From Promethearchaeota archaeon Loki_b32 (GTDB taxonomy: Archaea > Asgardarchaeota > Lokiarchaeia > Sigyniarchaeales > SOKP01): a stretch of 64,000 bases of DNA. Below, piece after piece: positions 57,284 to 61,568 of this stretch. The translations under genes were made by a program, and so were the position numbers. The stretch covers positions 32,001 to 96,000 of the forward strand of contig NJBH01000009.1 of assembly GCA_005223125.1 (NCBI GenBank). The letters run 5' to 3'. A model generated the notes under the pieces. The model was not told the DNA's origin, made no database searches, and saw only the letters and a list, made by a program, of their open reading frames with translations. Numbering within the stretch: the first letter of the stretch is position 1; each line of letters opens with the position of its first letter.

Positions 57284-58009
57284 TTATTCTTTTTGATTTA
57301 CATATAACTTTATTTCACGATTATATCTTTCAAGTATTATTAAATCAAGTTTAGCCAGTTTATCAACATGATATTTCACAGAACTTCGGCTCATATCTAA
57401 TTTCTTAGCAATCTTCGCTGAATTAATGCCAGGATTTTTTTCAATTAAATCTAGAATTTTTATGCTAGTTTTAGACTTTGTAATCAATTTTAATGGTATT
57501 GTTTTCATTTCTTTTTTGGATAAAACAGGGAAAAAGGATACATATTGTCCTAATTTCTCTTTTTTAATTATTCCATATTGTAATAATACATATAAATGCC
57601 ATTGTAACTGCCCCTTCTGCAAATTACATTTTCTAAGGAGTTCATTATTATGGATTCCGGGTTCTTGTAGAATTTTATTAATGATATTTTTACGGTTTTC
57701 ATTTTCAAAAATATCTTCGAAAGATAAATAAGTATACCGTTCAGCTACTATTGTTTTTCTTCTAAAATAGTCTTTATACTGATTAACAGTTAGTATGATT
57801 AAAAGTGATGTTAAAATTAGTGTGAAAAATGCTAATAAATCGATTAAAAACCAATTGATATTATCTTCAAGATAAAAAGATATCTTCGTTTCAGGAGAGA
57901 TTAGTAGGAATAAGGATAATAGAGAAATGCAAATAAGAGTGATTATAATACCTAATTTGATATAAAATAACCGTTTGTATTTCCCTATTTCATTTTTAAA
58001 AAAACTCAT
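57284..58009 (-). CDS. Membrane-anchored (2 TM) double winged-HTH regulator (paralog of 45159..45890)
   Basis: Two TM helices; DIFENENRKNII..I...PGIHNNELLRKCNLQKGQLQWHL and PGINSAKIAKKLDMSRSSVKYHVDKL. Confidence 0.85.
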   Translation of the reverse strand: MSFFKNEIGKYKRLFYIKLGIIITLICISLLSLFLLISPETKISFYLEDNINWFLIDLLAFFTLILTSLLIILTVNQYKDYFRRKTIVAERYTYLSFEDIFENENRKNIINKILQEPGIHNNELLRKCNLQKGQLQWHLYVLLQYGIIKKEKLGQYVSFFPVLSKKEMKTIPLKLITKSKTSIKILDLIEKNPGINSAKIAKKLDMSRSSVKYHVDKLAKLDLIILERYNREIKLYVNQKE

Positions 58010-58029
58010 ATTAAATAAAAAGAAATTGG

Positions 58030-58308
58030 CTAATTAAAAATTTTAAAAATTATTTTAGTCTTAATTTTTTTTTTAAAATCGTTTACTCTAACTGTAGAAT
58101 ATAAGGTTCCCGCGGGGTAAATATGTTTGGAATTTTCTATCCGAACAAGAACGATTAAAAATCCTAAGAAACTAACTACTATAATTAATAGGATTTTATA
58201 TAATAGAGAATGTTTACTGTTATCAAATAAAAATACTTTGTTTATTTCTTTTCTGTTTAGACCTAATCCCTCTCCAATTTTATATAGATTAAATATTTTA
58301 TCAAACAT
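58030..58308 (-). CDS. Small single-TM protein, trio member 3 (candidate rSAM substrate)
   Basis: MFDKIFNLYKIGEGLGLNRKEINKVF-TM-HIYPAGTLYSTVRVNDFKKK; homologous to the genes at 59667 and 59975. Confidence 0.75.
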   Translation of the reverse strand: MFDKIFNLYKIGEGLGLNRKEINKVFLFDNSKHSLLYKILLIIVVSFLGFLIVLVRIENSKHIYPAGTLYSTVRVNDFKKKIKTKIIFKIFN

Positions 58309-58387
58309 TTTATTGATCACACTTCTATTTTCTTGTTAAAAAATTATTGGTTTTAAATTTTGGTGTCTTAATTTTCTCTTTATGCAA

Positions 58388-59722
58388 TCATGATATAGTT
58401 CCAATAGAAGTAATTGGTTCAAATTTTGGTACGACACCTTTCTTACGTTTTATCCAATTTAATTCATCCGTTATAACAGATTTTATCTTACCTTTATTTC
58501 GAATATTAGTTATTCTTAGAAGACGCAATGCCTTTTTATAAATTTTCAAAGCCTGAGAATTCGATTTTAGCTTTACTAAAACTTTACCTAAATTCCAATA
58601 AAATAAAAAATTGTCTCTATAGAGTTGTATAGCTTTTAAAAGCATATTATAGGCTTTCTTATAATTTTTTTGATAAAATATCTTTACACCGAGATAAAAA
58701 AAATTAAAAGCACTTCTTTCTGCTAAAGCAGATGCGAAAAACTTTAAATTATAATCTTCGTTTTCCTTTGATAAATTTCTTAATTTATCGATAAGATTTT
58801 TTCTTTCCTCTTTGACTTTTATTAGATTTGTTATAAATTTTCTCGCAAAAGATTCTATTGAATAAAAAACAATTTTTTGTGATCCTGAATTAATCGGACC
58901 TTTTTTTAATAAATTATATAGAATATTGGGGAAATTGTATTGAATTAAAAGATCTGTAATTTCTCGTATGTTCGAATTTTCAGATTGAGAAATAAAATAT
59001 TTACTTTCTATTACTTTCAATAACAGATTGACGATTTGAGGCCATTTTATGAGTGATTCAATAATTAAGTCATAAATTAACTTTTTATTCTTCTTTCTTT
59101 TAAATTCAAGCGTTTGTATTGCGATAAAAGATAATAAATCTTCTTGTTCTTTAATTAACAGTGAATCATTAAAATTACTGTAATTCATAGTAAGTAATTT
59201 TTTACGGATTTTAGCTATAATTTGAAATATTTCTGTTTCATATACATTCATTACTTTAATACATTCAAATCTTACTGATGGAATAAATTCATGGTTGTAA
59301 AAACTTTTGGTACTCATATTTTCAAATCCATTATTTTCTAATAGTTCAATTAACAAGAAAGGAGGAAAACATAATTTATGTTGTAAACCTTTATGGGGTA
59401 TTCCGTAAATCCAACCTAAAATTTCTTTTTTTTGTTCTTTGGTCGAATCTAGATAATGCCGACATACTTTCTTGAGATCAGGAGTCTCAATAATTAATTT
59501 ACCTCCTGGTTCTAATACCCGAAAAAATTCACTTAAGGCATAGATTGCTTCAAAAAATGATAAGTGCTCTATTAGATGAATGGCTTTTATTTCTTCACTA
59601 CAATTATCTTCAAATTGTAAATCTATAGCGGACATTAATTTATCTGCAATTAATGTTTCATATAAATCAATATTGCAATAACCTATCTCGTACTTTTTTC
59701 CACAACCGATATTTAATTTCAT
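58388..59722 (-). CDS. Class I SAM methyltransferase domain fused to C-terminal TPR-like repeats
   Basis: MKLNIGCG, NID, HLIEHL and EFFRVLEPGGKLIIETPD motifs; C-terminal FYLGVKIFYQKNYKKAYNMLLKAIQL / YWNLGKVLVKLKSNSQALKIYKKALRL TPR pattern. Confidence 0.85.
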   Translation of the reverse strand: MKLNIGCGKKYEIGYCNIDLYETLIADKLMSAIDLQFEDNCSEEIKAIHLIEHLSFFEAIYALSEFFRVLEPGGKLIIETPDLKKVCRHYLDSTKEQKKEILGWIYGIPHKGLQHKLCFPPFLLIELLENNGFENMSTKSFYNHEFIPSVRFECIKVMNVYETEIFQIIAKIRKKLLTMNYSNFNDSLLIKEQEDLLSFIAIQTLEFKRKKNKKLIYDLIIESLIKWPQIVNLLLKVIESKYFISQSENSNIREITDLLIQYNFPNILYNLLKKGPINSGSQKIVFYSIESFARKFITNLIKVKEERKNLIDKLRNLSKENEDYNLKFFASALAERSAFNFFYLGVKIFYQKNYKKAYNMLLKAIQLYRDNFLFYWNLGKVLVKLKSNSQALKIYKKALRLLRITNIRNKGKIKSVITDELNWIKRKKGVVPKFEPITSIGTIS

Positions 59723-59978: not shown

Positions 59979-60310
59979 TTTAAAGATTTTACACCAATAT
60001 TTAGAACTTTAAAAAATCTACTATAGAAAGGGGAAACGAGTTTGCTAAATCTAGATTTATTCTTAAAATCTTTAACTTTTACTGACGAATAAAAAGAGTT
60101 GGAAGGATACGTGGAATCTGCGGGGTTGGTTATTATCATAAAGAGTGAAAATATAAATATACAGAAAAATGCAATAATAATTATGGAAAGACAGAAAAGT
60201 TTCATTTTTTTATATCTCCCCGAATAAGATAAGAAAACTCTATTGATTTCATTTTTATGAATTCCTAAACTCCTACCAATTTGATAAAACTGGATAATCT
60301 CATCAAACAT
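59975..60310 (-). CDS. Small single-TM protein, trio member 1 (candidate rSAM substrate)
   Basis: MFDEIIQFYQIGRSLGIHKNEINRVF-TM-NPADSTYPSNSFYSSVKVKDFKNK; GGAGG RBS; ATGA overlap with member 2. Confidence 0.78.
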   Translation of the reverse strand: MFDEIIQFYQIGRSLGIHKNEINRVFLSYSGRYKKMKLFCLSIIIIAFFCIFIFSLFMIITNPADSTYPSNSFYSSVKVKDFKNKSRFSKLVSPFYSRFFKVLNIGVKSLK

Positions 60311-60339
60311 TTTTAATATTAACCTCCATTATCATGAAT

Positions 60340-61494
60340 TTAATTTAAGATATTAATTAATTTTGATATTGTAGTATCTACTTTTTTATTAATAGGTACA
60401 AGTTTATGATTTATCATTGTATTTTCAATGGCTCTCAAACAATAAGGGTTTTCAAAGGATTTTAAAGCTAGACTAGTTCCAAGGCAACCCCCCCTACAAT
60501 CATCAGCAAGATCGCATTGCTGGCAAAAATCTTTTAATGGATATCTTTTATTTTTCAATCTTTTTAAAATTTCATCTAAACTTTCATTTCTAATATTACC
60601 TTCAATATAATCATCTGGAAGTGTAAGACATCCTTTTATGTTTCCATTACTTTGAATACCTAAAACTGAATGACCTGCTTGACACCCAACCCAAGGATTT
60701 AATCCTAATTTAGGAATAAACCTTGAGAAATATCCAAAGCAATGAGCCCCGATTAAAGGTAATCTTTTGTAAGAATATTTTTTATGATTAATTGCTATAA
60801 ATAATGCCAAAGTATAATATTCTTCTCTAGAAATAACTAATTCTTTTGGAAAACGTCCAATAGGGACTGCTAATTGGATTTGCCATGCGATATTTTTATC
60901 AATTAATAACTTCTTAATCATGTTTATTTCTTTAAAATTAATTTTACTTACGGACGTAATAACAGTTACTGGAAGCTTTTCTTTTTTTAGTAAACTTATA
61001 AGATTTAAAGTTTTTTTGAATGAATTGTTGATACCCCGTAAATAATCATGTGTTTCTCCTCTTCCTCCATCTAAACTTAGAGATACACAGTCTGTTTTTA
61101 ATTCTTTTATCTCTTGTATATGTTTCTCTAAATTTAATCCATTCGTGATTATGGATAATTGCATTTTTTGATTTTTTACATCTCTTGCAATGTCATACCA
61201 ATCATCTCGTAATAATGGTTCGCCCCCCATTAAAGCAACTCCCTTATAACCATATGACTTTAAGTCTTTAACTAATTTTAAAGCTTCATTTGTATTTAAT
61301 TCATCAGAGCGAGCAAATCCTGCATCTGAACCACAGTGAATACATTTACTATTGCACTTTAACGTGATTTCCCAAACTGCACAATTAGGTTTAATTTTAT
61401 TTAATAATAGATCTGAAAATTTCGTCATATGATTTTCTGAATTACGTTTATTATTGTTATTTATGATTTGTAAATTAAAATCCTTTGTTTGCAA
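60340..61494 (-). CDS. Radical SAM/SPASM-domain maturase (PlpX / rad_SAM_trio-like)
   Basis: AVWEITLKCNSKCIHCGS (CxxxCxxC), GGEP, SLDG..ETHD.LRG, WQIQLAVPIGR; SPASM cysteines GCQAG...IKGC...CQQCDLADDCRGGC...NPYC. Alternative start ATG at 61428. Confidence 0.92.
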   Translation of the reverse strand: MQTKDFNLQIINNNNKRNSENHMTKFSDLLLNKIKPNCAVWEITLKCNSKCIHCGSDAGFARSDELNTNEALKLVKDLKSYGYKGVALMGGEPLLRDDWYDIARDVKNQKMQLSIITNGLNLEKHIQEIKELKTDCVSLSLDGGRGETHDYLRGINNSFKKTLNLISLLKKEKLPVTVITSVSKINFKEINMIKKLLIDKNIAWQIQLAVPIGRFPKELVISREEYYTLALFIAINHKKYSYKRLPLIGAHCFGYFSRFIPKLGLNPWVGCQAGHSVLGIQSNGNIKGCLTLPDDYIEGNIRNESLDEILKRLKNKRYPLKDFCQQCDLADDCRGGCLGTSLALKSFENPYCLRAIENTMINHKLVPINKKVDTTISKLINILN

Positions 61495-61540
61495 TAAAAA
61501 AAATTTAACTTCGTTATACTATTAGTAAAAATCTTAGTAA

Positions 61541-61568
61541 TAAAGGTTTAAGGTGCACTTTTCGAACA
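61541..61568 (-). promoter_or_regulatory. Conserved 28-bp box, copy 3
   Basis: Identical to copy 2; 47 nt upstream of the rSAM TTG start. Confidence 0.82.

Follow-up and report, generated by a model that had tools for sequence, protein, structure and literature searches.

A conserved cassette of Lokiarchaeia joining a splicease-related radical SAM/SPASM enzyme, putative membrane-anchored precursors and a methyltransferase

What reaction is carried out, and on which substrate, by a radical S-adenosylmethionine (SAM) enzyme of the SPASM type that lies tightly packed with three small membrane proteins and a methyltransferase in an Asgard archaeon? The question is raised by positions 57284-61568 of a 64,000-nucleotide stretch of contig NJBH01000009.1 of Promethearchaeota archaeon Loki_b32 (positions 32,001 to 96,000 of the contig; the whole stretch is called the window here). 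These genes are a real, conserved maturation cassette that is binary-splicease-like in its working yet fails membership of the named families, and it most likely edits one invariant Tyr in the tails of the small proteins. The fuller proposal, namely a two-component splicease-like maturation of membrane-anchored precursors, with tyramine splicing and no PlpY partner, is in our judgment evenly balanced. All frames in the interval are co-oriented on the minus strand, and the list of open reading frames agrees with the earlier positions. The cassette genes proper, from the radical SAM gene onward, are:

60340..61428, minus strand: radical SAM (rSAM)/SPASM enzyme, 362 residues; passes Pfam Radical_SAM and SPASM; splicease-like, of a subfamily without a name
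59975..60310, minus strand: small protein 1 (sp1), 111 residues; leader, one transmembrane (TM) helix and a two-Tyr core; putative substrate
59667..59978, minus strand: small protein 2 (sp2), 103 residues; of the sp1/sp3 family; overlaps the start of the methyltransferase gene
58388..59722, minus strand: MTase-TPR, 444 residues; class I SAM methyltransferase (MTase) domain (about residues 1-156) plus a helical/TPR region
58030..58308, minus strand: small protein 3 (sp3), 92 residues; core at 58075-58122, universal Tyr70 at 58099-58101

From the rSAM gene to the remnant of an ICMT-like gene described below, the gaps between successive genes are 29, -4, -56, 79, 20 and 27 nt, in agreement with the tight minus-strand run, with gaps under 80 nt or overlaps, reported by the first-pass annotation. 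The longest version of the rSAM frame reaches TTG 61494; the start is most likely ATG 61428, because the resulting 362 residues match the length of relatives that are 93-95% identical.

Is the arrangement conserved? Our survey set comprised 161 genomes of the class, 135 of which belong to the host's Lokiarchaeia family. The small-protein family was found in 55 genomes, all of one family once a spurious match had been removed, and the rSAM likewise in 55 when at least 60% identity is required. Among the 135 family genomes, 54 have both, two have one component each (one genome for either) and 79 have neither, although kin in these counts are not independent; in both single-component genomes the gene is at a contig end. 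In the examined loci, 107 of 121 small-protein genes lie no more than 3.5 kb from both an rSAM and an MTase-TPR gene. The exceptions beyond contig ends are an orphan small protein (L064) and a locus without the MTase (L093), and both genomes have a full cassette elsewhere. Loki_b32 itself carries a second cassette on contig C52, with an rSAM 61% identical, an MTase-TPR 50% identical and one small protein. At loci from other Asgard families the rSAM stands beside small proteins in all 14 cases and the MTase-TPR in 13, and the set of three also occurs in Thermoplasmatota and in bacterial-type contigs. Thus, an rSAM/SPASM enzyme, one to four single-TM small proteins and an MTase-TPR are a real conserved unit. 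Since the number of small-protein copies runs from one to four and gene order is variable, the homologous trio first described holds for this locus and not as a fixed feature. The co-occurrence of the small proteins with the rSAM and MTase-TPR, which had been put forward as a check, proved strict; the small proteins are not independent of the rSAM. A weak match in G077 was discarded (E 6e-5, six stops).

To which enzymes is the rSAM related? The CxxxCxxC motif (C25, C29, C32) and seven SPASM cysteines (C249, C267, C302, C305, C311, C315, C330), noted as intact from the start, are present and invariant in 15 relatives. The enzyme had been placed in the PlpX/TIGR03913 group. Its relation to spliceases stands: the best profiles are TIGR04103 and TIGR03913, it is 36% identical to a TIGR04103 member, and the tree agrees. 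Membership of TIGR03913 does not, as its scores are all far below the cut-offs (199.6 against 725 bits for TIGR04103, 170.9 against 591.75 for TIGR03913, 146.2 against 425 for TIGR04133), whereas a TIGR03913 control enzyme from Azospirillum scores 760.6 bits, above 591.75, and the small proteins have no DUF1843. In a careful tree of 51 rows, the rSAM group stands as a clade by itself (100/99), the enzymes of TIGR04103 and TIGR03913 form another (99/94), and one supergroup (97/88) holds both. NirJ2/AhbD-like and MftC proteins are shut out of this supergroup by a 100/99 branch, and cofactor-enzyme profiles score below cut-off (AhbD 130 of 500, NirJ2 125 of 500, MftC 98 of 265), so that the rSAM does not group with AhbC/D, NirJ or MftC. 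The rSAM has residues E20, L23, W77, W182, Q183, Q185 and G232 in common with spliceases and not with the outgroup. A sequence search of the PDB gave no close relative, SkfB being the best match (E 5e-16). Within the supergroup, a distinct subgroup of Asgard rSAMs (L106:2143-3539, L107:5635-7360) is paired with a 204-residue soluble protein, and no precursor is visible at these loci.

Are the small proteins the substrates? Sp1, sp2 and sp3 are homologous to one another, at 33-38% identity and with tblastn E values from 1e-9 to 1e-15, and a single strong hydrophobic segment is present in every one of them (KD19 about 3.1). They have no match in Pfam or NCBIfam, including DUF1843/PF08898, which DUF1843 control proteins do match, and the ESM Atlas gave no usable match to sp3, a result that is no measure of novelty. 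In their anatomy, the N-terminal segment (GxxLGL...EI) and the tail (YPxGxxYS[TS]VxxxDF) are conserved, and the TM helix between them is variable. The three invariant Tyr described at first are invariant within sp1-3 and not family-wide: in 89 family sequences the invariant Tyr are the two of the tail, the N-terminal one being 76% conserved, and with distant members included, the last tail Tyr alone is universal. Among 1.8 billion representatives searched with a profile there are soluble homologues, encoded beside enzymes of the rSAM's own clade, that keep the leader, have no TM helix and carry the core in up to six or seven tandem copies. This is the leader-plus-repeated-core anatomy of precursors of peptides ribosomally synthesized and modified after translation (RiPPs), and it is the strongest argument from sequence that the tail would be the substrate.

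Among 115 local cores, 112 have Ser as the residue after the universal Tyr. In other Asgard lineages this residue is Gly at 30 of the 36 matched sites, as it is in most soluble cores, and the minority residues across the family are Ala, Asn, Tyr and Asp. The pattern of a small residue and then Val/Ile after Tyr+1 matches that in cores encoded next to enzymes of the TIGR04103/TIGR03913 type, in which Tyr is also seen followed by Ala, Asn or Met. The XYG splice motif is indeed missing here, as had been remarked. Given Gly at the matched site in other lineages, however, its absence would be a lineage-specific Gly-to-Ser substitution at the XYG position, and therefore weak evidence for the new chemistry that had been read into it.

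The precursors vary in form among loci. One branch of the rSAM clade (L102-L105, L128, L205, L207) is paired with multi-TM proteins of 135-170 residues that keep the leader, have a C-terminal YG/YN/YS core and carry a separate YP motif in a loop. Beside related rSAMs in bacterial-type contigs there are lipoprotein-like precursors (L126:8281-8592, L127:9856-10161, L132:5513-5851, L148:2-361), with YN, YY, YA, YS and YM cores. Roughly one Lokiarchaeia cassette in four (at L037:3159-3758 and at 15 loci besides), the one at 57284-61568 not among them, has a small-protein gene followed by that of a 200-residue multi-TM protein with no Pfam match. Clustering had joined this protein and the small proteins into one family by TM similarity; alignment separates them.

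Does the rSAM bind such a protein? The predicted complex of the rSAM with sp3 scored 0.68, against 0.01 for the best of three controls, in favor of the pairing that complex modelling was meant to check. Among 80 solved pairs 58 attain that mark, and among 110 mismatched pairs 2 do so, a calibration only roughly valid here (own alignments, ligands present). The runs agree on at least 86% of contacts, with a partner pLDDT of at least 59. Confident contacts involve the leader (residues 2-26) and the core (63-81) of sp3, and none its TM helix. In the model, the leader lies on rSAM helix 202-217, at the enzyme surface, and core residues 67-78, including Tyr70, thread through the rSAM barrel. The model thus supports leader and core binding by the rSAM, without demonstrating it. 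Since the rSAM itself binds the leader in the model, the TPR domain would not be needed to explain recognition.

Leader/core anatomy, co-occurrence and the complex model all favor the original suggestion, and we consider it very probable that the small proteins are substrates of the rSAM. In a different role, they would be membrane anchors or activators, with a lipid, a cofactor or another surface protein as the true substrate. A leader helix is able to act as an activator (PMC11414181), the regulon proposed below includes an ICMT/PEMT-like membrane methyltransferase and envelope proteins, and the fold of the MTase gives no clue to its substrate. Nevertheless, tandem cores in the soluble homologues, variable copy number and an XYG-type core are features of substrates, the rSAM groups apart from NirJ2/AhbD-like and MftC proteins, and the core is modelled within the barrel; a role as anchors or activators seems to us improbable.

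What, then, is the role of the MTase-TPR? Its Pfam matches (Methyltransf_23/11 and TPR) are weak and below cut-offs. Residues G6, G8, D19, E52, H53 and H115, which are SAM-binding residues, are invariant in 22 homologues, and a Rossmann-type fold in the model (pLDDT 92), a glycine-rich motif I and an acidic residue after strand 2 point to class I. Foldseek matches are generic class I MTases (best E 6e-5), so no substrate can be assigned from the fold, and a sequence search of the PDB with the MTase domain gave no relative. Loci lacking the MTase-TPR have an adjacent B12-dependent rSAM (L113, L203) or another class I MTase (L125), an arrangement that suggests methylation as a conserved second step. 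The MTase-TPR also stands beside soluble precursors (L100, L204, L206), and hence its TPR region would not be specific to the handling of TM segments. A gene for an AMP-binding/CapK-like ligase of 460 residues adjoins cassettes with soluble precursors and two rSAM paralogs (L100:6457-7842, L206:9085-10467), and L204:3551-4963 may be a third case.

How does the cassette compare with known systems? No protease, transporter or RiPP recognition element (RRE) gene is conserved with the cassette among about 55 Lokiarchaeia loci, and no conserved Nif11 or PqqD-like neighbor was found at cassette loci. The first-pass annotation had likewise seen no PqqD/PlpY-type RRE gene. Non-cyanobacterial (binary) spliceases have no Y protein, which the leader helix replaces (Richter et al., PMC11414181), so its absence is ordinary. 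The binary (type II) systems RhaX/RhaA, RcsX and RasX of Rheinheimera (PMC11414181, PMC11626197) resemble the cassette in having an rSAM/SPASM enzyme without a Y protein and a precursor with a helical leader, which docks on the enzyme in models, and a Tyr core. Unlike them, the cassette has membrane-anchored precursors, Ser after Tyr, a second conserved Tyr, a near-obligate MTase-TPR and an archaeal host; the RhaX sequence is not in our alignments. Type I PlpX/PcpX enzymes (TIGR04103), the best profile match, share barrel residues and seven SPASM cysteines with the rSAM, whereas the cassette lacks a Nif11 leader and PlpY, and its rSAM lacks the C-terminal extension. In TIGR03913 (rad_SAM_trio) loci, too, a related enzyme has as neighbors several small paralogs that share an invariant Tyr. 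The cassette proteins differ from the DUF1843 peptides (GDL motif) in not being PF08898 and in having their Tyr C-terminal, after a TM helix, and not N-terminal. In Aureibacter, the gene next after the rSAM at a DUF1843/TIGR03913-like locus encodes a class I methyltransferase (L120:5375-5938). The archaeal modifiers Mmp10, QCMT and CrpC (the last from PMC13692751) likewise use radical SAM chemistry on archaeal proteins, and they belong to other families and perform C-methylation or form thioethers; the CrpC paper mentions neither splicing nor Asgard, tyrosine or membrane.

Is the reaction tyramine splicing? Several points weigh against this proposal. The rSAM is only 32-36% identical to spliceases and lies outside their clade, the tree leaving unsettled the branching order of the two clades in the supergroup. 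Positions conserved in spliceases are changed (R192/N, H229/N, S235/G, Q259/E, G317/W), several of them at the modelled precursor interface. Of the 115 local cores, 113 retain another Tyr, six residues upstream, that has no role in splicing, and the characterized splice sites in the literature covered are all XYG. Leader and core flank the TM helix, and after insertion both cannot reach a cytoplasmic enzyme. Lastly, the complex score may echo the solved rSAM-peptide structures SuiB-SuiA, ChlB and CteB (17-20% identity).

It is possible, although we do not favor it, that the substrates are the same and the radical reaction a different one, as the first-pass annotation had inferred: the universal Tyr would be cross-linked (to the upstream Tyr, for instance), cleaved in its side chain or dehydrogenated, and methylation would follow. 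The separate rSAM clade, with altered residues near the SPASM clusters, would fit such a reaction, as would the high conservation of the upstream Tyr and Gly, the near-constant presence of some kind of methyltransferase, the two rSAM paralogs at some loci and the fact that Gly after Tyr is not required in the family. On the other hand, residues other than Gly are also seen after Tyr next to a genuine TIGR03913 enzyme. As for a cross-link, in branches that include the multi-TM one the upstream Tyr is missing or lies far off, beyond TM segments, its spacing from the universal Tyr varies (5 or 6), and it lies outside the confident contacts of the complex model.

In 81% of sequences the excess of Lys/Arg beside the TM helix is on its N side, and in 3% on its C side, which suggests an N-in/C-out topology. 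Such a topology would put leader and core on opposite sides of the membrane, so that modification would have to precede insertion, and the small proteins are probably short enough for post-translational insertion. We propose for splicease-like maturation that a fresh precursor of 82-111 residues, still soluble or chaperoned, would dock its N-terminal helical leader on the rSAM, in the manner of the RhaA leader with RhaX. The MTase may then methylate the core (the new ketoamide unit, the upstream Tyr or another residue being candidate sites), and the protein would insert N-in/C-out, displaying its edited tail at the cell surface. Alternatively, and compatibly with either chemistry, the modified core could be cleaved away to give a free small RiPP, with the TM helix as no more than a transient anchor or export signal. 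The soluble multi-core homologues resemble classical released RiPPs, one such locus has an S9/S33-type hydrolase, and there are the lipoprotein-like versions in bacterial-type contigs; yet the Lokiarchaeia loci have no conserved protease or transporter, and release seems to us rather unlikely.

In the literature covered, spliceases have been characterized from bacteria alone, and at XYG sites alone. If the splicing proposal is true, these archaeal enzymes, with membrane-anchored substrates and XYS sites, would bring backbone editing to the surface of Asgard cells, and XYS splicing would widen the splice-tag toolbox; if the reaction differs from splicing, it would be new enzyme chemistry. We advance with some doubt a broader view, that of an rSAM/MTase family spread widely over Asgard archaea, Thermoplasmatota and some bacteria and performing a new Tyr-directed reaction, or splicing and then ketoamide methylation, on surface-retained membrane proteins within an envelope regulon. 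The natural Gly, Ser, Ala and Asn variants and the soluble multi-core homologues are convenient material for work in E. coli. Scott and co-workers reportedly predicted 939 splicease systems in 2022, from 189 bacterial genera according to a review. No published description of the cassette was found in the literature searched (Asgard/archaeal rSAM-SPASM peptides, membrane-anchored RiPPs), a search outside which Scott et al. 2022 lay; the single paper there that joins Asgard and RiPPs is a survey of bacteriocins.

How is the cassette controlled? The features that bear on this are:

61541..61568, minus strand: conserved box resembling an operator, immediately before a BRE/TATA-like element and some 113 nt upstream of the rSAM ATG; presumably bound by a protein
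57284..58009, minus strand: membrane-anchored tandem winged-helix-turn-helix regulator (TM-wHTH; HVO_0163-like); Pfam PF24266, PF13412; accessory to the conserved cassette
57041..57256, minus strand: ICMT/PEMT-like gene remnant, 71 residues, 63% identical to the intact paralog 45897-46487; just outside 57284-61568
45159..47831, minus strand: further box-fronted genes, namely an LVIVD-repeat membrane protein (46676-47752), an ICMT-like gene (45897-46487) and a TM-wHTH paralog (45159-45890)

The regulator and the ICMT-like gene had been counted as parts of the cassette, and this is not borne out: the TM-wHTH gene adjoins it in 3 of about 60 loci, the present one and two close relatives. The TM-wHTH family occurs in 138 of the 161 genomes, the closest orthologues being at other loci. 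The link is instead a shared upstream box. Loki_b32 has four box sites (61541-61568, 46547, 47805 and one before the C52 cassette); across the survey, 71 of 161 genomes together have 124 sites of the 22-bp box, whereas its reversed control has 3. It lies no more than 1.5 kb upstream of a TM-wHTH regulator in 54 genomes, usually at 675-820 nt and with an ICMT-like gene in the space. Of 52 cassettes it fronts 28, against 1 for the control, and it stays at the first cassette gene despite changed gene order in seven loci; LVIVD-repeat protein and small membrane protein genes are also box-fronted. From these sequence patterns we infer an autoregulated envelope regulon that would include the cassette in about half of lineages, the operon standing under the box of the TM-wHTH regulator jointly with other envelope genes. 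The sequencing runs listed include no RNA run that holds the sequence.

The ICMT-like remnant ends after 71 residues; the intact paralog has 196 and passes Pfam ICMT and PEMT. At the junction where the remnant ends, a perfect 33-nt direct repeat precedes a start-less frame of 94 residues (56630-56963, minus strand), which by eye is like the tail of a PD-(D/E)xK/Vsr-type nuclease and has no Pfam match. Zn-ribbon paralogs at 55398-55757 and 61692-62063 (62% protein, 79% DNA identity) flank the cassette region, which suggests a local duplication or rearrangement. In the relatives G075 and G091, the LVIVD, cassette, ICMT and regulator genes are nearer each other or contiguous. Further along the window (52328-54803, minus strand), two genes like 2-hydroxyacyl-CoA dehydratase subunits stand beside an FAD-linked oxidase-like gene, as judged by eye only.

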